From an uncultured Acidobacteriota bacterium (GTDB lineage Bacteria; Acidobacteriota; Terriglobia; Terriglobales; Acidobacteriaceae), in the NCBI GenBank assembly GCA_963793945.1, contig CAWCCE010000001.1, positions 525,716-589,715 of the forward strand: 64,000 nt of DNA, in the 5' to 3' direction. The position numbers and the translations under genes were made by a program. Of this stretch, positions 12,906 through 39,642 are shown in pieces (the stretch's first letter is position 1; every line of letters starts with the position of its first letter). The notes beneath the pieces were generated by a model. That model was given only the letters and a program-made list of their open reading frames with translations. It was not told where the DNA came from and searched no databases.

Positions 12906-12959
12906 GACTGCGCACCGGCGTTGCTCTCGAGGCGCCCTAAATTGCATAGTAAGGAGGTA

Positions 12960-13583
12960 ATGTCCAACAAAAGTCTCACGCTGCAAGGCAAGCACATTCG
13001 TCTCGAACCGCTGGGGAGCAACCACGCCGAAGGGCTGGCCGCCGCATCAGCAACAGATCCCTCTCTGTACCGTTGGAGTCCCATTCCCCAAGGAGTGTCC
13101 GAGGCCAAGAAGTACATCGACACGGCCCTGGCCTGGCAGCAAGCTGGCACCGCCGTCCCGTTCGCAATCGTTCGCATGCACGACAGTGCCGTGATCGGTT
13201 CGACACGCTTCTGGAATATCGAACGGTGGGCGTGGCCCCAAGGACATCCCGCTCACGGGCGCGGTTTCCCGGACGCCTGCGAGATCGGTTATACGTGGTT
13301 CGCAAAGTCCGCAGTTCGTACGGGCGCGAATACCGAAGCCAAGCTCCTCATGCTAAGGCATGCCTTCGAAGTCTGGCAGGTCCTTCGCGTCTGCTTCCAC
13401 ACCGACGCGCGCAATCAGCGTTCCCGTGCTGCGCTTGAGCGCATCGGAGGCCAATTCGAAGGAATCCTCCGCGCTCACCGCATGGCCGCGGACTTCATTC
13501 CGCGCGACTCGGTCCGCTACTCGATTGTCGCCTCAGAGTGGCCGACCGTGAAGCAACGCTTGATTCAATTCGTGGACCGATAG
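12960..13583 (+). CDS. GNAT N-acetyltransferase, RimJ/RimL-like
   Basis: L.G..I.LEPL...HAEGL...(W)...; ...R...ALERIGG.FEGILR.H. Strong AAGGAGG lies 5 nt upstream of ATG 12960. Confidence 0.85.
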   Translation: MSNKSLTLQGKHIRLEPLGSNHAEGLAAASATDPSLYRWSPIPQGVSEAKKYIDTALAWQQAGTAVPFAIVRMHDSAVIGSTRFWNIERWAWPQGHPAHGRGFPDACEIGYTWFAKSAVRTGANTEAKLLMLRHAFEVWQVLRVCFHTDARNQRSRAALERIGGQFEGILRAHRMAADFIPRDSVRYSIVASEWPTVKQRLIQFVDR

Positions 13584-23863: not shown

Positions 23864-26800
23864 TTACGGCTGGAACTCCCACAGGTCTTGCAGGGAGTCG
23901 AAGCCGGTGTGCAGGTTCTTCGGCTGCGAGGCCAGCGAACCCAGGCCGAAGCCACCCATCAGCCATATATTGCCATTAGCGTCAGGCCACGCGGCTCCTT
24001 GTTGCCTGCTGCCAGGAGCCAGTGTCGACGCGGTTCCCGTGTAGATGCCCAGCTGATCACTCAACTCTGAGCCATCCATCCACGTCCATTCGCCTTGGCT
24101 GTACTTCCACAGATCGTTGAAGTAGCGCCCGCCGACTCCGGATCCGCCCAGGATCCAAACGTCGCCATTGGCAGCTTTCCAGCTTGTGGCGAAGCTACGC
24201 GAACCGGGGACATTGGTCGAGTCCGGAATGCCCTGCGTTCCGAAGTTCGCTCCAGCCTCGTTCGTCTGCGAGCCGCTTATAAACGTCCAAGTGCTAGTCC
24301 CTGGCGTGAACTTCCACAGGTCATTCATTACTCCGACATTGCCATTCACGTCATATGCGAGACCGCCGAAGAGCCAGAAGTTGCCGGACGAATCAAACCA
24401 CGAGTTTGCGCCGATTCGGGCTCCTGGTACCGCGCCTGCGCCGGAGTAAACGCCCTTCGCCTGGATGGTGCTCGATCCGCTCATCCACGTCCAGGTCGTG
24501 CCATTCCACTCCCACAGGTCGTTAAGGTAATCTTCGTTTCCTGCTGAGTCGGCACCGTACCCGCCAATCATCCAGAAATTGCCGGCGGCATCCTGCGCAC
24601 CCGTCGACCAGTATCGCGATCCGGGCGTCCCGGCATTGCCAATGCCGTTGTATATGCCGGCTTGGTTCCCCACGCTCGACGCCAGCGGTCCTTGCCACAC
24701 CCAGGTGTTGGTCGACGGCGTGTATTCCCACATGTCGTTGAATGGATCGGCGCTCGGACAGAAGCCTGTAACGTTATCCGCGACATATCCCCCGAACATC
24801 CAGAAGTTGCCCGAAGCATCGGTCCAGCTCAAGTAATCGGACCGAGCGCTGGGCGTTCCCGACTGACCCACAGCGGTCGGATACGCAAAGCACTGGCCTC
24901 CCTGAGACTGGCCGTTCTTGAAGTTCCAGTTCGTGCCGTCAAACATCCACAAGTCGCTCAGAACTGACTCGGCGCCGCCTCCCGACGTCTGGTTCACTGT
25001 CGGCCCGTTGATGTCGTAACCGATGCCGCCGAAGAGCCAGAAGTGACCCGAAGCGTCGATCCAGGTGTTTTCTCCGTATCGCGTTCCCGGTTCCAGCGGA
25101 GCGGTGCCGTAGTCTCCACCCACGGCCACTACATCCGCGCCGTTGATCCACGTCCACTCGCTGATGCAGACCACGACCACGTTCGTGACGTTGGCGGTCG
25201 CTGTTCCGGTGCCGTTGCTCACCGTGCAATTCTGATCAGGTTTCGTTGGCTGGGTGAATACGGTCACGCTGTAGGTCGCGCCGTTCGCAATCGCTGTCGC
25301 AAATGTGAAAGGTCCATTCGTCGTCAGCGTCAGATTGTCCGCATTGTTGTCCTGCAACACGACCCCGGTGCTGGCAACGTTGGCCGAAAGATCATAAAGA
25401 GTTCCGCCGATCGTTACCGTGCTTCCGGTGGCGCTGCAGGTTGCCGTGACCGTTACATTCGCCGTGATCACTCCCGTGCTGTTGGCGCTAAGCGTGCAAG
25501 TCTGCCCCGTTGGCTGCGTGAGAACAGTCACCGTGTAGGTCGCACCGCTCGCGTAAGTGTTCGAGAATGTCTGCGGCGTGTTGTTGGTTGTAAACGAAAG
25601 CTGAGCGCTCTGGTCGTCTTGCACAACCAAAGTGCCGCTCGTCAGACCCGAGGCTGTGACGCTGACCGTGAGAGGTGTCGTCGCCCCGCAGTTGACCGCA
25701 ACATTCGTGACATTCGCGTTGGCCGTTCCGTTGCCGTTGGTGACAAGACAGGTCTGTCCCGCTGGCTGCGTCTTAATCGTTACCGCGTACGTCCCGCCCG
25801 CCGAAATACTTTTCGCGAAAGTGAAGCCGCCGTTCGCTGAAAGCGACAATGTGTCGAACGTGCCGTTGTCCGATAACACAATTGTTCCAGTGGTCAGGCC
25901 GGAGAGTGTCCCGCCGATGGTGTAGGTCGTCGCCGCGCACGCTACAGTGACGTTCGTGACGTTCGCGTTGGCAACCACGCCGCTCCCATTGGTCACCGTG
26001 CAAGTCTGTCCAGCAGGAGCAGTCGTTACCGTTACTGCATATGCACTTCCGGAGGCAAGGAGCCGGTCGAACGTGAATGCACCGTTCGCTGCGATATTCA
26101 AACTGTCGAACGCGCCGTTATCCGCAAGAGTGACCGTAGTGCCGTTTGGAAGTCCGCTTAGAGTTCCACCGATGCTGTAGAGCGGAGCGCAGGTGACTGC
26201 CACGTTGGTTACGTTTGCATTGGCTGTACCAGTCCCATTCGCGACCGTGCAATTCTGGTCGGTCGGCTGGGTCAATACTGTCACCGCGTATGGACTGCCC
26301 GCAGCGACCGCAGTCGCAAACGTAAATGTTCCGTTTGCGCTCAGAGACAGGTTATCGCCGCCATTGTCCTGAAGTACCACCGTACCGCTCGTTAACCCAC
26401 TAAGTGTTCCGCCGATAGTGATGGTTCCAACGACAGGAGCGCAGGCGACCGTGACATTGTTCACGTCCGCAGTTGCGGTCCCGCTACCGTTAGTGACGGT
26501 GCAGCTCTGCCCAGCAGGCTGCGTCGCAACTGTAACGGCATAAGTGCTGGCAACCGGCTTCGCGAATGTGAAGGGACCATTCGAACTTAGGGCCAAACTG
26601 TCGAAAGAGCCGTTGTCAGCCAGCACGACAGTGCCGGTGAGACCAGACACTGTTCCGCCAATCGTGAAGCCGGGAGCCCCGCAAGTCACGCTAACGCTGG
26701 TGACATTTGCATTGGCCGTTCCGCTCCCGCCCGTCACCGTGCACGTCTGTCCGGAAGGCTGCGTCGCGACCGCGACACTATAAGCACCACCCGCATTGAC

Positions 26801-27019
26801 TGCCGTCTTGAATGTGAAAGCGCCATTGGCTGTAAGGCTGAGGCTGTCGGAGGTGTTATCCGATAGGACCACGGTTGCACCGCTGGCGAGACCGGACAGC
26901 GTTCCGCCAATCGTGTACGTGGTTGTGGTTTTTGTGCCGCCAACGCTGCCGCCGCCACAAGCCAAGGAGAACAGTAAAGCCGCCATCACAACTGATAGCA
27001 GAGGTATGCGGGAACTCAT
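23864..27019 (-). CDS. large secreted (possibly lipid-anchored) protein: 7 tandem Ig-like repeats plus C-terminal Kelch-type beta-propeller
   Basis: Signal peptide MSSRIPLLSVVMAALLFSLAC (GGAGG 5 nt upstream of ATG 27019). Seven ~85-aa repeats (TIGGTLSGL...VLxDNG.D.L.L.ANG.FTF......G..Y.VTV.TQP.GQ.CTV.NG.GTA.ANVTNV.V.C). Then ~7 Kelch-like blades (NDLW.+....W.W..G.....G.YG......PG.R....W.D..GN.W+FGG). Confidence 0.85.
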   Translation of the reverse strand: MSSRIPLLSVVMAALLFSLACGGGSVGGTKTTTTYTIGGTLSGLASGATVVLSDNTSDSLSLTANGAFTFKTAVNAGGAYSVAVATQPSGQTCTVTGGSGTANANVTSVSVTCGAPGFTIGGTVSGLTGTVVLADNGSFDSLALSSNGPFTFAKPVASTYAVTVATQPAGQSCTVTNGSGTATADVNNVTVACAPVVGTITIGGTLSGLTSGTVVLQDNGGDNLSLSANGTFTFATAVAAGSPYAVTVLTQPTDQNCTVANGTGTANANVTNVAVTCAPLYSIGGTLSGLPNGTTVTLADNGAFDSLNIAANGAFTFDRLLASGSAYAVTVTTAPAGQTCTVTNGSGVVANANVTNVTVACAATTYTIGGTLSGLTTGTIVLSDNGTFDTLSLSANGGFTFAKSISAGGTYAVTIKTQPAGQTCLVTNGNGTANANVTNVAVNCGATTPLTVSVTASGLTSGTLVVQDDQSAQLSFTTNNTPQTFSNTYASGATYTVTVLTQPTGQTCTLSANSTGVITANVTVTATCSATGSTVTIGGTLYDLSANVASTGVVLQDNNADNLTLTTNGPFTFATAIANGATYSVTVFTQPTKPDQNCTVSNGTGTATANVTNVVVVCISEWTWINGADVVAVGGDYGTAPLEPGTRYGENTWIDASGHFWLFGGIGYDINGPTVNQTSGGGAESVLSDLWMFDGTNWNFKNGQSQGGQCFAYPTAVGQSGTPSARSDYLSWTDASGNFWMFGGYVADNVTGFCPSADPFNDMWEYTPSTNTWVWQGPLASSVGNQAGIYNGIGNAGTPGSRYWSTGAQDAAGNFWMIGGYGADSAGNEDYLNDLWEWNGTTWTWMSGSSTIQAKGVYSGAGAVPGARIGANSWFDSSGNFWLFGGLAYDVNGNVGVMNDLWKFTPGTSTWTFISGSQTNEAGANFGTQGIPDSTNVPGSRSFATSWKAANGDVWILGGSGVGGRYFNDLWKYSQGEWTWMDGSELSDQLGIYTGTASTLAPGSRQQGAAWPDANGNIWLMGGFGLGSLASQPKNLHTGFDSLQDLWEFQP
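25157..26916 (-). repeat. coding tandem repeats (7 x ~255 nt) inside the surface-protein gene
   Basis: Seven successive repeat units read in the translation. Each unit has two conserved Cys. Boundaries are approximate. Confidence 0.7.
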
Positions 27020-27423
27020 CTCACCCTCCAACCCAATCTTCAATCTTTTGTTTCGAATATTTACTTCGTCGCGGAGTCTACCTCAGGTGACCTGATGGGC
27101 CAGAACAGGGGGGATACAAATGACGCATGGATTCTCTGGGATCTCAATACTGGCACAACTCGCAATAAGACTCGCGCCGCGCATTCTAATTCAGTTGTCG
27201 AATATAGCAATAGCCAGAAAGTGGGGGACGAAGAAACCACGAACGAGTTGTCACGACCTGATTTTCGACTTTACGAGCCATTGATCACGATTCGCTATCC
27301 CCTGTCTTCCACTCCGATGTCTCCTAAGCCTCTATACCTTACCCCCTGACCCGCGTCGCGAACTCCCTCCAACTCTAGAAAGTCGAACTGAATCAAACCT
27401 TAGTCAAATAGGAGACCTCAAAA

Positions 27424-28018: not shown

Positions 28019-28047
28019 TTGACGTCCCCATCCCGATTTTGTAGCAT
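28019..28047 (+). promoter_or_regulatory. sigma70-like promoter of the riboswitch-controlled operon
   Basis: TTGACG (28019-24), 17-nt spacer, TAGCAT (28042-47). Followed by a GTTCGCTC-UUCG-GAGCGAAC hairpin at 28059-28078. Confidence 0.5.
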
Positions 28048-28080
28048 CGTAGAGACAAGTTCGCTCTTCGGAGCGAACCT

Positions 28081-28198
28081 GAATTTCATGCAGAGTGGCT
28101 GAGGGACGAGCCCTGAGACGCCACGGCAACCGATCCGGGATCATATATCCCGGATGCTTGGTGCCAACTCTCTCCTGGAAACAGGGAACATGGGATTC
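28081..28198 (+). promoter_or_regulatory. SAM-I (S-box) riboswitch aptamer
   Basis: P1 is GAAUUUCAUG/CAUGGGAUUC. Conserved cores: AGAGUGGCUGAGGGA, GCCC, UGAGACGCCACGGCAACC, perfect 8-bp P3 (AUCCGGGA/UCCCGGAU), GGUGCCAA, and P4 with a GAAA loop. Order and spacing match the S-box consensus. Confidence 0.85.
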
Positions 28199-28233
28199 GG
28201 TATGCGCACTGCTTTTTTATTCGCATTCCGATA

Positions 28234-28274
28234 GCCTCTTTTCCTTTTCCTGGAAAAAGAGGCCTTAGTTTTTT
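28234..28274 (+). terminator. riboswitch expression-platform terminator hairpin with U-tract
   Basis: GCCUCUUUUCC-loop-GGAAAAAGAGGC (one bulge) followed by UUAGUUUUUU. A second overlapping hairpin, GGCCUUA-GUUUUU-UAAGGCC, is followed by AAUUUUU. Confidence 0.6.
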
Positions 28275-28349
28275 AAGGCCAATTTTTCCGGCTCGTCTTC
28301 GGCTACTCGTTGCTTTGAAAGAGAACAAAGCAAGAAAGCGAGTAGCGAC

Positions 28350-29639
28350 ATGTCTCATTACGAACTGCGGTGCCGCGAATGCGGACGGACTTGGGGAAAC
28401 CAGCCCCGCTCCATCTGCGACGATTGTTTCTCCCCCTTGGAAGTGGCTTACGACTACGACGCGCTAAAAGCGTCCGTCAGCCGTGAGCGGATCGCCCAGC
28501 GGCCGCCGAACATGTGGCGCTATTCCGAACTGTTGCCCCTCCCCCAAGGCTATACACCGCGATTGCCGGTCGGATTTACTCCGCTCTTTCCAGCTCCGCA
28601 ATTAGCGAAGCAGTTGACGGGAACGGCCGCTGCCGCGGGTAATCTCTATTTGAAGAACGACGCCGTGTGTCTGCCCACGCTGAGCTTTAAGGACCGCGTT
28701 GTCGCCGTCGCGCTGTCACAAGCGAAGGAATTCGGTTTCGACACGGTCTCATGTTCGTCGACTGGAAACCTGGCGAACGCCGTTGCCGCGCACGCCGCGC
28801 GCGAAGGCCTGAAGGCGTGGATCTTCATTCCCTCCGACCTTGAGCCCGCGAAGATTCTCGGCACGAACGTGTTCGGCGCGAAGGTCGTCCGCATCGCCGG
28901 CAACTACGATCAAGTCAACCGTCTCTGCTCGCAGATCGCCGATGAACATCGCTGGGGATTCGTGAATGTGAACCTCCGTCCTTACTACGCCGAAGGATCG
29001 AAGACTGTCGGATTCGAAATCGCCGAACAACTCGGATGGCGCTTGCCCGACAACATCGTCTGTCCGATGGCAGGCGGATCGCTGATCGTGAAAATCAAGA
29101 AGGCATTCGACGAGCTGATCAAGCTCGGCCTGGTCGAGCCGAAAGAAGTGAAGTTCTTCGGCGCCCAAGCCACAGGATGTTCGCCGATCTCGACAGCTGT
29201 GAAAACCGGCGCCTCCGAGATCGAGCCGCAGAAGCCAAATACCATCGCGCGCTCGCTGGCGATCGGCAACCCAGCTGACGGCCACTACGCGATCAAGACC
29301 ATCAAGAACAGCGGTGGATGGAGCGAAGACGTCAGCGATCTGGAAGTGATCGACTCGATCAAACTGCTGGCGGAAACCGAAGGCGTCTTCACCGAAACCG
29401 CCGGCGGAGTAACGGTAGGGACGGCAGGGAAGCTGTATCGCCAAGACCGCATCCTGCCTGACGAAACGACCGTTCTCTGCATCACCGGAAATGGATTGAA
29501 GACGACCGACGTGCTCGCGGGCGCTTACGAAGTCGAGCGTCCGATCGCGCCGAAGCTGACGGAGTTCGAAAACTATCTGCAGCAGACGCTGACACCATCG
29601 GAAATCCGCGGTGTCATTGCAGAAACCGTAGGAGCGTAA
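28350..29639 (+). CDS. threonine-synthase-family PLP enzyme with N-terminal zinc ribbon (ThrC-like; candidate MetM-type homocysteine synthase)
   Basis: 429 aa. CRECG...CDDC Zn ribbon. PLP lysine context PTLSFKDR. Fold-type II PLP motifs (SSTGN, GGS). Preceded by the SAM-I riboswitch and followed by a sulfur carrier. Confidence 0.88.
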   Translation: MSHYELRCRECGRTWGNQPRSICDDCFSPLEVAYDYDALKASVSRERIAQRPPNMWRYSELLPLPQGYTPRLPVGFTPLFPAPQLAKQLTGTAAAAGNLYLKNDAVCLPTLSFKDRVVAVALSQAKEFGFDTVSCSSTGNLANAVAAHAAREGLKAWIFIPSDLEPAKILGTNVFGAKVVRIAGNYDQVNRLCSQIADEHRWGFVNVNLRPYYAEGSKTVGFEIAEQLGWRLPDNIVCPMAGGSLIVKIKKAFDELIKLGLVEPKEVKFFGAQATGCSPISTAVKTGASEIEPQKPNTIARSLAIGNPADGHYAIKTIKNSGGWSEDVSDLEVIDSIKLLAETEGVFTETAGGVTVGTAGKLYRQDRILPDETTVLCITGNGLKTTDVLAGAYEVERPIAPKLTEFENYLQQTLTPSEIRGVIAETVGA

Positions 29640-29641
29640 TC

Positions 29642-29923
29642 ATGCCGATCACGGTTCAGATTCCAACAGCATTGCGGCGCCACACCGAAGGCGTGAAATC
29701 CATCACCTGCGCTGCGTCGAACTTGGGAGAATTATTCTCGGTGCTCGACGAGAAGTTTCCAGAACTGAAGCCTCACATTCGCGACGACCAAGGCCAGATT
29801 CGCCGCTTTCTGAATATCTACGTGAATGAAGAAGACATCCGCTTCCTGGGCGGACAAGCGTACGCTTTCCAGGAAGGCGACGAAGTATTGCTCGTTCCAT
29901 CGATCGCCGGCGGCAAGAACTAG
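29642..29923 (+). CDS. MoaD/ThiS/CysO-family sulfur-carrier protein (beta-grasp, C-terminal GG)
   Basis: 93 aa. Resembles M. tuberculosis CysO by eye (IPT.LR.HT.G.KS......L......L......L.........+.RF.NIYVN.ED+RF..G.......GD.V...P..AGG). Ends AGGKN. Starts 2 nt after the ThrC-like stop. Confidence 0.85.
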   Translation: MPITVQIPTALRRHTEGVKSITCAASNLGELFSVLDEKFPELKPHIRDDQGQIRRFLNIYVNEEDIRFLGGQAYAFQEGDEVLLVPSIAGGKN

Positions 29924-38941: not shown

Positions 38942-38960
38942 CCATAGGGAAACCCTATGG
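38942..38960 (+). promoter_or_regulatory. palindrome overlapping the antitoxin start codon (candidate VapB operator or translational hairpin)
   Basis: CCATAGGG-AAA-CCCTATGG is a perfect 8-bp inverted repeat. The ATG at 38957-59 lies in the right arm. Confidence 0.45.
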
Positions 38961-39208
38961 CGACACTTTACGTGGAGAACCTACCTGACGACCTGCATAA
39001 GGCTTTGAAGAAACGTGCCCGAGCGAATCGCAGCTCGATCGCATCCGAGGTGATCGCGCTGTTAAAGCAGTTCGTTCCGACTGAGGCAGAGCTAAAACGG
39101 CGGCGAGAGTTTTATGACCGGCTAGCCGAACTGCGAGCCAAGCCTCCTATTGGACCCGGCCCCTTCCCCTCGGCGGAGGAGATGATTCGAGAGGATCGCG
39201 AGCGTTGA
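38957..39208 (+). CDS. vapB: ribbon-helix-helix antitoxin (FitA/VapB-like)
   Basis: MATLYVENLPDDLHKALKKRARANRSSIASEVIALLK is an Arc/MetJ-type RHH. Its stop overlaps the TTG start of the PIN gene (TTGA). Confidence 0.8.
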   Translation: MATLYVENLPDDLHKALKKRARANRSSIASEVIALLKQFVPTEAELKRRREFYDRLAELRAKPPIGPGPFPSAEEMIREDRER

Positions 39209-39642
39209 CCACTTTTGTTCTAGATGCGAGCGTCGCCGTGAAGTGGGCGATGCCGCTGGCTCTTGAGCCTCTGACCCGAGAAGCTTTGGATTTGATGAAG
39301 CGGTACGTCAAGGGCGAAGTGGAATTTATTGTCCCGGACATCTTCTGGGCTGAGGTGGGCAGCGTTCTTTGGAGAGGCGCGAAGCAGCAAAGATGGGAAA
39401 GTGGTCAAGCCGAAGCGGTGGCGCTCGACATCAGAGCTCGCAATTTCGAAACTATTCCTTCACAGCTATTAATGCATGAAGCTCTGCAGATCGCTTTCGC
39501 TTACGATAGGAATATCTACGACTGCCTGTACGCGGCTTTGGCCGTCGAATCGAAGGCCCCGTTAATCACCGCCGACGAGCGGCTGGCGAATGCGCTGGCT
39601 GCTCATCTTCCCGTGAAATGGCTTGGAGCGTTGAATTTGTAG
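39205..39642 (+). CDS. vapC: PIN-domain ribonuclease toxin
   Basis: FVLDASVAVKW (first acidic residue), ...YD..Y.ALA......L+TAD..L. 145 aa. 4-nt overlap with the antitoxin gene. Confidence 0.85.
   Translation: MTTFVLDASVAVKWAMPLALEPLTREALDLMKRYVKGEVEFIVPDIFWAEVGSVLWRGAKQQRWESGQAEAVALDIRARNFETIPSQLLMHEALQIAFAYDRNIYDCLYAALAVESKAPLITADERLANALAAHLPVKWLGALNL

Follow-up and report, generated by a model that had tools for sequence, protein, structure and literature searches.

A SAM-I riboswitch ahead of a ThrC homologue and a CysO-like sulfur carrier in an acidobacterial genome: a probable MetM/MetO-type operon for homocysteine synthesis

Organization of the riboswitch-led operon

We analyzed a 64,000-nucleotide stretch of DNA from an uncultured member of the Acidobacteriaceae (Acidobacteriota; Terriglobia), which corresponds to positions 525,716 to 589,715 of contig CAWCCE010000001.1 (assembly GCA_963793945.1) and is referred to here, at its full length, as the window. 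Between positions 28,019 and 29,923, the window carries an S-adenosylmethionine (SAM)-I riboswitch followed by two genes, one for a 429-aa pyridoxal phosphate (PLP) enzyme of the threonine synthase (ThrC) family and one for a 93-aa sulfur carrier of the ThiS/CysO type. Our proposal is that this pair probably makes homocysteine by a MetM/MetO-type route, in which a carrier thiocarboxylate supplies sulfur to O-phosphohomoserine, and that SAM represses the operon, probably through its translation. The features of the locus are the following.

28019..28047, + strand: sigma-70-type promoter, with the -35 element TTGACG (28019-28024), a 17-nt spacer and the -10 element TAGCAT (28042-28047)
28059..28078, + strand: 5'-proximal hairpin GUUCGCUC-UUCG-GAGCGAAC, a few nucleotides 5' of P1 (predicted fold, conservation)
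28081..28198, + strand: SAM-I (S-box) aptamer, P1-P4 four-way junction (RF00162, own covariance model, covariation)
28081-90/28189-98, + strand: aptamer P1, 10 bp, two of them G.U
28101-06, 28110-13 and 28125-31, + strand: aptamer motifs GAGGGA, GCCC and GGCAACC (sequence reading)
28133-40/28148-55, + strand: aptamer P3, ATCCGGGA/TCCCGGAT, eight perfect pairs
28160-67, + strand: aptamer segment GGUGCCAA (sequence reading)
28174-77/28182-85, + strand: aptamer P4, with a GAAA loop
28197..28231, + strand: leader hairpin H1, directly 3' of the P1 3' strand (predicted; pairing kept and sequence varying in relatives)
28233..28263, + strand: leader hairpin H2 (CCUCUUUUCC ... GGAAAAAGAGG; sequence kept in close relatives, alignment A4)
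28261..28287, + strand: terminator-like hairpin GGCCUUAG-UUUU-UUAAGGCC (28261-28280), then AAUUUUU (found by scan)
28290..28310, + strand: anti-aptamer segment GGCUCGUCUUCGGCUACUCG, which can base-pair with the 5' strand and loop of P2 (28093-28113; duplex prediction)
28302..28346, + strand: sequestor hairpin, in which GCUACUCG (28303-28310) pairs with CGAGUAGC (28339-28346) around an inner hairpin (28312-28335; folding)
28350..29639, + strand: metM-like gene, ThrC-family PLP enzyme of 429 aa (PF00291, PALP, E 1e-62; TIGR00260, 262.6 bits)
29642..29923, + strand: metO-like gene, ThiS/CysO-type carrier of 93 aa (PF02597), starting 2 nt after the metM-like stop codon

The initial annotation of this stretch had read the leader as a TTGACG-17-TAGCAT promoter and a 5' UUCG hairpin followed by an S-box with all hallmarks, and the genes as a threonine-synthase-family gene with an N-terminal CxxC..CxxC ribbon and, 2 nt downstream, a beta-grasp protein resembling CysO along its length. 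All of these readings held up. The RF00162 (SAM-I) model matched positions 28083-28196 of the + strand over its full length (1-108) with 66.2 bits, above the gathering threshold of 44.4 (E 3.4e-13), and each aptamer motif lies in the sequence where it had been placed; this element was the sole Rfam match in the 64-kb window. A second SAM-I covariance model, which we built from 18 homologous leaders of related loci, assigned 124.5 bits to the window aptamer. In the same 18 leaders, the RNAalifold consensus recovered P1-P4, with compensatory changes in 14 of the 29 consensus pairs. These results indicated that, judged by sequence and covariation, the element is a bona fide SAM-I riboswitch.

The promoter scored 9/12 in a consensus scan, and a single match of such a score is no better than chance. 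A TTGAC(G/A) plus TAnnAT pair was found at a constant offset from the aptamer in approximately 28 Terriglobia loci, in which the 5' hairpin also keeps its position, with a covarying stem (e.g., GUUUGCCC/GGGCAGGC) and variable loops. We took both elements as real because of this recurrent offset and the compensatory changes in the stem. The predicted role of the hairpin would be stabilization of the mRNA 5' end.

A divergent ThrC homologue

Within the PALP-domain protein, all four cysteines of the N-terminal Cys4 ribbon (C8xxC11...C23xxC26) were confirmed, and K114 is the predicted PLP lysine; of the cysteines, C8, C23, and C26 show no variation in a diverse alignment. The closest homologues are 87-92% identical, and the named ones among them come from metagenome-assembled genomes of Terriglobia/Acidobacteriota (e.g., Candidatus Sulfotelmatobacter). 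It had been anticipated that annotation pipelines would call the gene a threonine synthase. Every named homologue indeed bears this label, because the 429-aa protein passes the NCBI threonine synthase equivalog TIGR00260, for which the cut-off is 167.1 bits. The ThrC structures in the PDB (Aquifex 2zsj, Thermus 1uim, Bacillus subtilis 6cgq, and Mycobacterium tuberculosis 2d1f) aligned to the protein only from approximately residue 51 (E about 1e-46 to 1e-39); thus, the N-terminal 50 or so residues, with the Cys4 ribbon, are extra relative to the solved ThrCs.

A neighbour-joining tree placed the window enzyme in a clade with other carrier-linked proteins. Apart from it stands a clade of canonical ThrCs, which unites the four bacterial proteins from the PDB with the second thrC found at two Nitrospirota loci. 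The sister clade of the carrier-linked enzymes consists of actinobacterial (Micromonosporaceae) homologues with 51% identity to the window protein. The homologue in Micromonospora coriariae is preceded by a SAM-I element that ends 8 nt before the start codon, and a homologue search seeded with an actinobacterial representative returned Micromonosporaceae only.

At 21 positions, the MetM-like clade and the ThrCs are each conserved internally but differ from one another; in Thermus numbering, these include G64V, M65V, T88L, S155N, N157R, R160Y, Q164S, N191L, W249G, and D323T. The residues T88, S155, R160, and N188 of Thermus ThrC, which we take to be contacts of the substrate phosphate that aid water addition at C-beta, correspond to L141, N208, Y213, and G242 of the window protein. 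At least 96% of the proteins in the MetM-like clade share the residues equivalent to L141, N208, and Y213, and G242 refers to the window protein. Its motifs are also altered, with STGNL for STGNT, VNLRPYY for NSVNPxR, and AGGSL for GNAGN; features retained from ThrC are the PLP lysine, the S-T-G-N loop, and N154. Such replacements at the presumed phosphate site would be compatible with retained phosphate elimination and an altered final part of the reaction. The separate clade, the 21 residues, and the Cys4 ribbon suggest that the 429-aa enzyme is a paralogue distinct from the housekeeping ThrC.

The sulfur carrier and its C-terminal tails

The best solved relative of the 93-aa carrier is M. 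tuberculosis CysO (3dwg_C), which matches residues 1-91 with an E value of 4e-21. The AGGAG Shine-Dalgarno sequence of the carrier gene sits in the 3' end of the metM-like gene, and the carrier ends in Gly90-Gly91 followed by a Lys-Asn tail. Related loci (n=80) were collected by scanning one genome per GTDB species, and a carrier gene lies directly 3' of the metM-like gene in 69 of them. The Gly-Gly pair is invariant in the carriers of these 69 loci and the residues after it vary. The Gly-Gly is terminal in 23 loci, among them those of every cyanobacterial carrier found; most Terriglobia carriers have one to three unconserved residues (KN in the window), and some loci have longer tails. Variable short tails would be expected of a pro-form that is trimmed by a protease before activation. 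Such a pro-form is HcyS-Ala of Wolinella succinogenes, which is trimmed by a protease before the carrier is activated. In the MetM/MetO pathway, Mec is needed for the maturation of MetO (GapMind 2026 preprint).

Two further kinds of carrier C-terminus were observed. In six Acidobacteriaceae carriers (L027, L031:3674-4051, L037:7250-7621, L039, L041, and L042), a Cys-rich tail, CCSYCGQEECxCG(D), continues in frame past the Gly-Gly, and Pfam detects the ThiS domain alone in these proteins; metal binding or sulfur relay are our guesses for its role. In two loci (L066:7257-7772 and L058:7605-8138), the carrier is fused after the Gly-Gly to a C-terminal NIL domain (PF09383), a domain also found at the C-terminus of the methionine-importer ATPase MetN. 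This fusion implies a proteolytic release of the carrier and a tie to methionine.

Distribution and genomic context of related loci

Approximately three quarters of the 80 loci belong to Acidobacteriota, and the others to Cyanobacteria, Nitrospirota, Planctomycetota, Chloroflexota, Sumerlaeota, a deltaproteobacterium, and Marinimicrobia. Clustering of the neighbouring open reading frames (ORFs) of the 80 loci revealed no conserved third gene beyond lineage synteny; thus, the pair appears to be a self-contained two-gene operon. No metX, metY, or other met gene was found among the 48 ORFs scanned in the window.

In a few lineages, informative genes adjoin the pair. Read from the leader onward, the gene order of these loci is the following.

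L066 (deltaproteobacterium): SAM-I element, metM-like gene, carrier-NIL fusion, cysK, cysM, Prok-JAB protease (108 bits), and ThiF (276 bits)
L058 (Sumerlaeota): metM-like gene, carrier-NIL fusion, and ThiF
L075 (Marinimicrobia): metM-like gene, carrier, and ThiF
L064:166-7379 and L065:5968-10140 (Nitrospirota): metM-like gene, carrier, canonical thrC, TIGR02535 (HomK), and aspartate kinase

The canonical thrC genes of the two Nitrospirota loci encode proteins of 363-366 aa without the ribbon (TIGR00260, 320-328 bits), and their HomK is a phosphoglycerate-mutase-like homoserine phosphotransferase; HomK enzymes of TIGR02535 form O-phosphohomoserine (GapMind 2026 preprint). Since these operons hold HomK and a true thrC together with the MetM-like/carrier pair, a role of the MetM-like protein as the housekeeping ThrC is hard to reconcile with them. 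The L064 operon additionally has a gene for citramalate synthase, and the Nitrospirota arrangement as a whole forms a compact aspartate-family cluster at the O-phosphohomoserine branch point. A second ThrC-like ORF at another locus (L026) was rejected, as it proved to be cysK.

Leaders upstream of the operon in relatives

With our covariance model, a single SAM-I element was detected upstream of the metM-like gene in 52 of the 80 loci, as well as in the window. These elements always lie on the coding strand, about 90-270 nt upstream of the gene, and Rfam agrees in two subsets. A regular expression for the S-box core had recovered only 26 of the 80 loci, missing many true elements, and was replaced by Rfam and the covariance model.

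Ten further loci, nine from Terriglobia together with L073, carry a SAM-II-like element. The nine Terriglobia loci share the near-identical sequence GUGGCGAUUUAGGGCRACUUGCUCCACGUAAAAAACUGCUAAAG, followed by a strong terminator. Their putative pseudoknots lie at the following positions.

L022:5782-5825
L029:5732-5775
L030:5768-5811
L035:5770-5813
L044:5731-5774
L045:5628-5671
L046:21-64
L047:5779-5822
L050:5782-5825

The nine elements reach only 26.4 bits with RF00521, for which the gathering threshold is 36, and are therefore missed by a standard Rfam scan. The element at L073:4737-4810 scores above the threshold (37.5 bits) and lies 1.2 kb upstream, with an ORF between. The flanks of L030 also contain an Acido-Lenti-1 small RNA (12957-13002, 52.7 bits) and a lysine riboswitch (867-1055, - strand, 70.6 bits).

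A third type of leader contains a mini-ORF rich in Met and Cys codons. It was found upstream of the same metM-like gene in three loci (L019:5771-5935, L021 from ~5790, and L024 from ~5079) and, by a degenerate-pattern search, in 13 metagenome contigs (L082-L094), all in a Terriglobia subclade formed by Candidatus Angelobacter and relatives. This leader is about 150 nt long, lies 170-260 nt upstream of the gene, and has no Rfam match. The mini-ORF encodes MAMCC(H/R/C)TMAM(R/C/G)V...RQ(K/T)G(S/Q), with four or five Met and two to four Cys. Its wobble positions hardly vary, which suggests a constraint on the RNA as well. The mini-ORF is enclosed by a stem, CUUUCUGUCUC/GAGGCAGAAAG, in which 4 of 11 pairs show compensatory changes, and is followed by a terminator, ACCCGCUGCC-loop-GGCAGCGGGUUUUU; GAGGCAG can alternatively pair with CUGCCUC of this terminator, which would form an antiterminator. 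We regard this leader as a candidate Met/Cys-responsive attenuator or new riboswitch.

In total, 65 of the 80 loci have a SAM- or Met/Cys-related leader, and no threonine-related signal was seen in the leaders of the 80 loci. The loci without a detected leader are cyanobacterial, Nitrospirota, or Marinimicrobia loci, or those in which the sequence ends near the gene. Thus, the SAM-I, SAM-II-like, and Met/Cys mini-ORF leaders all point to sulfur amino acids, not to threonine.

Predicted expression platform of the window leader

The initial annotation had also described U-tract hairpins behind the aptamer. This was borne out in part: one terminator-like hairpin with a U run is present at 28261-28280, but the window shows no excess of such sites relative to shuffled sequence (3 observed, 2.8 expected). 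The presence of U tracts varies within the clade, and many related leaders have none. Because of these two results, transcription termination was disfavoured as the conserved platform.

The anti-aptamer segment is predicted to form a duplex of 19-20 bp with the aptamer (-34.6 kcal/mol). Of 51 loci, 25, all from the subclade of the window, have a leader with an exact 8-9-nt reverse complement of the aptamer sequence GGACGAGCC, and the GCUCGUCC part of the anti-aptamer is conserved in close relatives (alignment A4). A sister subgroup has GACGAGC, located at codons 2-4, as the partner of GGCUCGUC, and in a subclade with the aptamer sequence ACGGGC, the leader holds GCCCGU. In the window, GCUACUCG forms the 3' part of the anti-aptamer and has two predicted alternative partners, the aptamer and CGAGUAGC, the latter covering the Shine-Dalgarno-like GAG just 5' of the metM-like AUG. 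The computed cost of opening the ribosome-binding site and AUG was 5.4 kcal/mol with the aptamer free and 10.4 kcal/mol with the aptamer enforced.

These predictions suggest a translational off-switch under SAM as the probable mode of control. At low SAM, the segment 28290-28310 would invade the P2 strand of the aptamer and leave the ribosome-binding region open; at high SAM, the aptamer would hold, and GCUACUCG would pair with CGAGUAGC beside the AUG, hiding the ribosome-binding region. Abundant SAM would in this way switch the operon off.

Probable MetM/MetO-type homocysteine synthesis and its alternatives

The ThrC-homologue/carrier route to homocysteine that had been put forward as a candidate gained support from the SAM-I element, the separate clade, the pairing in 69 of 80 loci, and the contexts with ThiF, JAMM protease, cysK, cysM, NIL, HomK, and thrC. 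The precedent named for it, the MetM/MetO route of Streptomyces, was also confirmed. In Streptomyces albulus, the ThrC homologue MetM converts O-phosphohomoserine and the MetO thiocarboxylate to homocysteine (Hasebe et al. 2024, Appl Environ Microbiol 90:e01247-24, as presented in PMC12172450 and the GapMind 2026 preprint). According to the same two accounts, MetO is served by Mec and MoeZ, and metM is preceded by a SAM riboswitch. MetM homologues outside Streptomyces have been noted (PMC12172450), and GapMind already implements the pathway with an explicit remark on misannotation as threonine synthase (2026 preprint).

By analogy, we considered it probable that the window operon makes homocysteine in the same manner. 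The two genes would be transcribed together from the conserved promoter. The 429-aa enzyme would bind O-phosphohomoserine on PLP and eliminate phosphate, after which sulfur would be added at C-gamma, in place of water at C-beta, to yield homocysteine. The sulfur donor would be the C-terminal thiocarboxylate of the 93-aa carrier. A JAMM-type protease would trim the GG-KN tail, and a ThiF/MoeZ-type E1 would adenylate and sulfurate the carrier, by analogy with Mec and MoeZ, which act on CysO and MetO; both proteins would be encoded elsewhere in the genome. If so, the threonine synthase label of the 429-aa gene is probably wrong.

Several results weigh against this interpretation. The Pfam scan of the 48 ORFs in the window found no JAMM protease, ThiF/MoeZ, thrB, or hom; the enzyme exceeds the TIGR00260 cut-off (262.6 against 167.1 bits); and in vitro formation of threonine from O-phosphohomoserine was reported for a clade member from a cyanobacterium (PMC12172450). 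With regard to translational control, the minimum-free-energy fold has the sequestor hairpin at the ribosome-binding site in both states, and RNAduplex, applied to every locus, gave no significant complementarity between anti-aptamer and ribosome-binding site (median z -0.5). On these grounds, we rejected a clean two-state switch driven by thermodynamics. Because the hairpin is present in both folds, the switch model leans on the 5 kcal/mol difference or on co-transcriptional kinetics.

The TIGR00260 score, together with the retained PLP lysine, S-T-G-N loop, and N154, could also be expected of a working threonine synthase, possibly also a threonine deaminase, beside which the carrier would have an unrelated role. 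The cyanobacterial protein just mentioned, from Microcystis, has a metO-like neighbour and was reported to show both ThrC and deaminase activity in vitro (PMC12172450). Against this stand the SAM-I, SAM-II-like, or Met/Cys leaders of 65 of the 80 loci with no threonine-related signal, the carrier pairing in 69 of 80, the canonical thrC in the same operon at L064 and L065, and the replacement of ThrC residues 88, 155, and 160 (Thermus) across the clade and of 188 in the window protein. We therefore judged a threonine synthase improbable here.

A further alternative is synthesis of cysteine from O-phosphoserine and the carrier thiocarboxylate, with the pair as a CysM/CysO analogue on a ThrC scaffold. 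CysO, the closest solved relative of the carrier, serves the O-phosphoserine-dependent CysM; the L066 operon has cysK, cysM, and a Mec-like JAMM protease; the mini-ORF leader has Cys as well as Met codons; and S-box elements also control some cysteine-related genes. However, the scaffold is that of ThrC, with a substrate of homoserine length, and not that of CysK/CysM, the pair is tied at L064 and L065 to thrC and to HomK, which forms O-phosphohomoserine, L066 already has its own cysK and cysM, and the characterized relative MetM makes homocysteine, so that we consider the cysteine alternative very improbable. Least probable of all, and only marginally credible, is the production of another sulfur metabolite, such as a thio-amino acid or a natural-product precursor, comparable to the BexX/CysO-type carriers of thiosugar synthesis. 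The second-best PDB match of the carrier, 4n6e_B, was deposited as a 'ThiS/MoaD family protein' and is presumably the carrier in complex with the thiosugar enzyme BexX, and some acidobacterial carriers have the unusual Cys-rich tails; however, in many phyla, cyanobacteria among them, the operon consists of the two genes alone and is not embedded in a biosynthetic cluster, and SAM-responsive control fits a housekeeping role in methionine and SAM supply.

Comparison with known systems

The window operon shares with S. albulus MetM/MetO, as published descriptions present it, the ThrC-type PLP enzyme, the ThiS/CysO-type carrier, the SAM riboswitch, and the threonine synthase label, and by likeness also the proposed reaction and the need for Mec and MoeZ. 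It differs in its host (Acidobacteriota, Terriglobia), in the absence of the accessory genes nearby, in the KN tail, and in the apparently translational leader. The window enzyme is only about 50% identical to its nearest retrieved actinobacterial relatives, those of Micromonosporaceae.

With the CysM/CysO/Mec/MoeZ system of M. tuberculosis, the window shares a carrier that is a full-length CysO homologue and the joining of a phosphorylated hydroxy-amino acid to a protein thiocarboxylate on a fold-type II PLP enzyme. In contrast, the scaffold is ThrC rather than CysK/CysM, the substrate is one carbon longer, and the reaction would be a gamma-replacement; the M. tuberculosis genes are clustered with mec, whereas those of the window are not. 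Homocysteine synthesis from a protein thiocarboxylate also occurs in the HcyS/MetY/HcyD/HcyF system of Wolinella succinogenes, in which the extra C-terminal residue of a ThiS-like carrier is removed by a metalloprotease. The likeness lies in a ThiS-like carrier with a removable tail that delivers sulfur for homocysteine; the difference is that the enzyme, MetY, is a fold-type I O-acetylhomoserine sulfhydrylase and its substrate is O-acetylhomoserine.

Canonical ThrCs (TIGR00260; 1uim, 2zsj, 6cgq, and 2d1f) have in common with the window enzyme the fold, the PLP-lysine motif SFKDR, and O-phosphohomoserine as the substrate, which is proposed for the window enzyme; the Cys4 ribbon, the motif swaps, the clade of its own, the SAM control, and the coupling to a sulfur carrier set the window enzyme apart. 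Cyanobacterial homologues and the window protein share 55-58% identity. The 'ThrC' of Microcystis aeruginosa, a member of this clade, is encoded beside a metO-like gene and is 51.6% identical to S. albulus MetM (PMC12172450). Unlike the window gene, it is without a SAM riboswitch; it was reported as a threonine-induced threonine synthase/deaminase, with no MetM-type function shown in vivo (PMC12172450).

Significance for acidobacterial methionine metabolism

The pathway is already published and included in an annotation tool; the window case is thus a re-annotation in a major soil phylum and not a new mechanism. Our literature search found no paper linking the MetM/MetO pathway to Acidobacteria, which are among the most abundant soil bacteria. 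Because all named homologues are called threonine synthase, metabolic reconstructions miss the methionine route and may count threonine synthesis twice; recognition of the MetM type would correct both errors. With this assignment, the range of a pathway known from Streptomyces since 2024 would grow to include Terriglobia and, judging from gene neighbourhoods, at least six more phyla.

A more far-reaching proposal, which we hold only tentatively and consider rather unlikely, is that the operon is the only homocysteine route of Terriglobia, that one gene is governed by three interchangeable sensors, that the Cys4 ribbon is the dock of the carrier, and that the tails reflect a ubiquitin-like maturation. 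Depending on the lineage within this one class, the sensor meant is SAM-I, the sub-threshold SAM-II variant, or an as yet undescribed element, the Met/Cys mini-ORF or its RNA. If this were true, O-phosphohomoserine would be the single branch point of threonine and methionine, as in plants, methionine flux would be set at one gene, and the tails after the Gly-Gly would define a ubiquitin-like maturation by an unlinked protease. The related loci provide a natural example in which different RNA devices make one operon responsive to SAM or Met, and this switching of riboswitch class, together with the undescribed Met/Cys mini-ORF leader, is the most interesting by-product outside the window.

Other features of the window

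Two further features were recorded in the window. Upstream of the operon and opposite to it (23864-27043, - strand) lies a gene for a 1059-aa protein with DUF4369 and Kelch/beta-propeller repeats, which had no NCBIfam match. Downstream, an ORF for a 145-aa PIN-domain protein (39205-39642) directly follows an ORF of 83 aa (38957-39208) on the same strand, and the two resemble a VapBC-like toxin-antitoxin pair.

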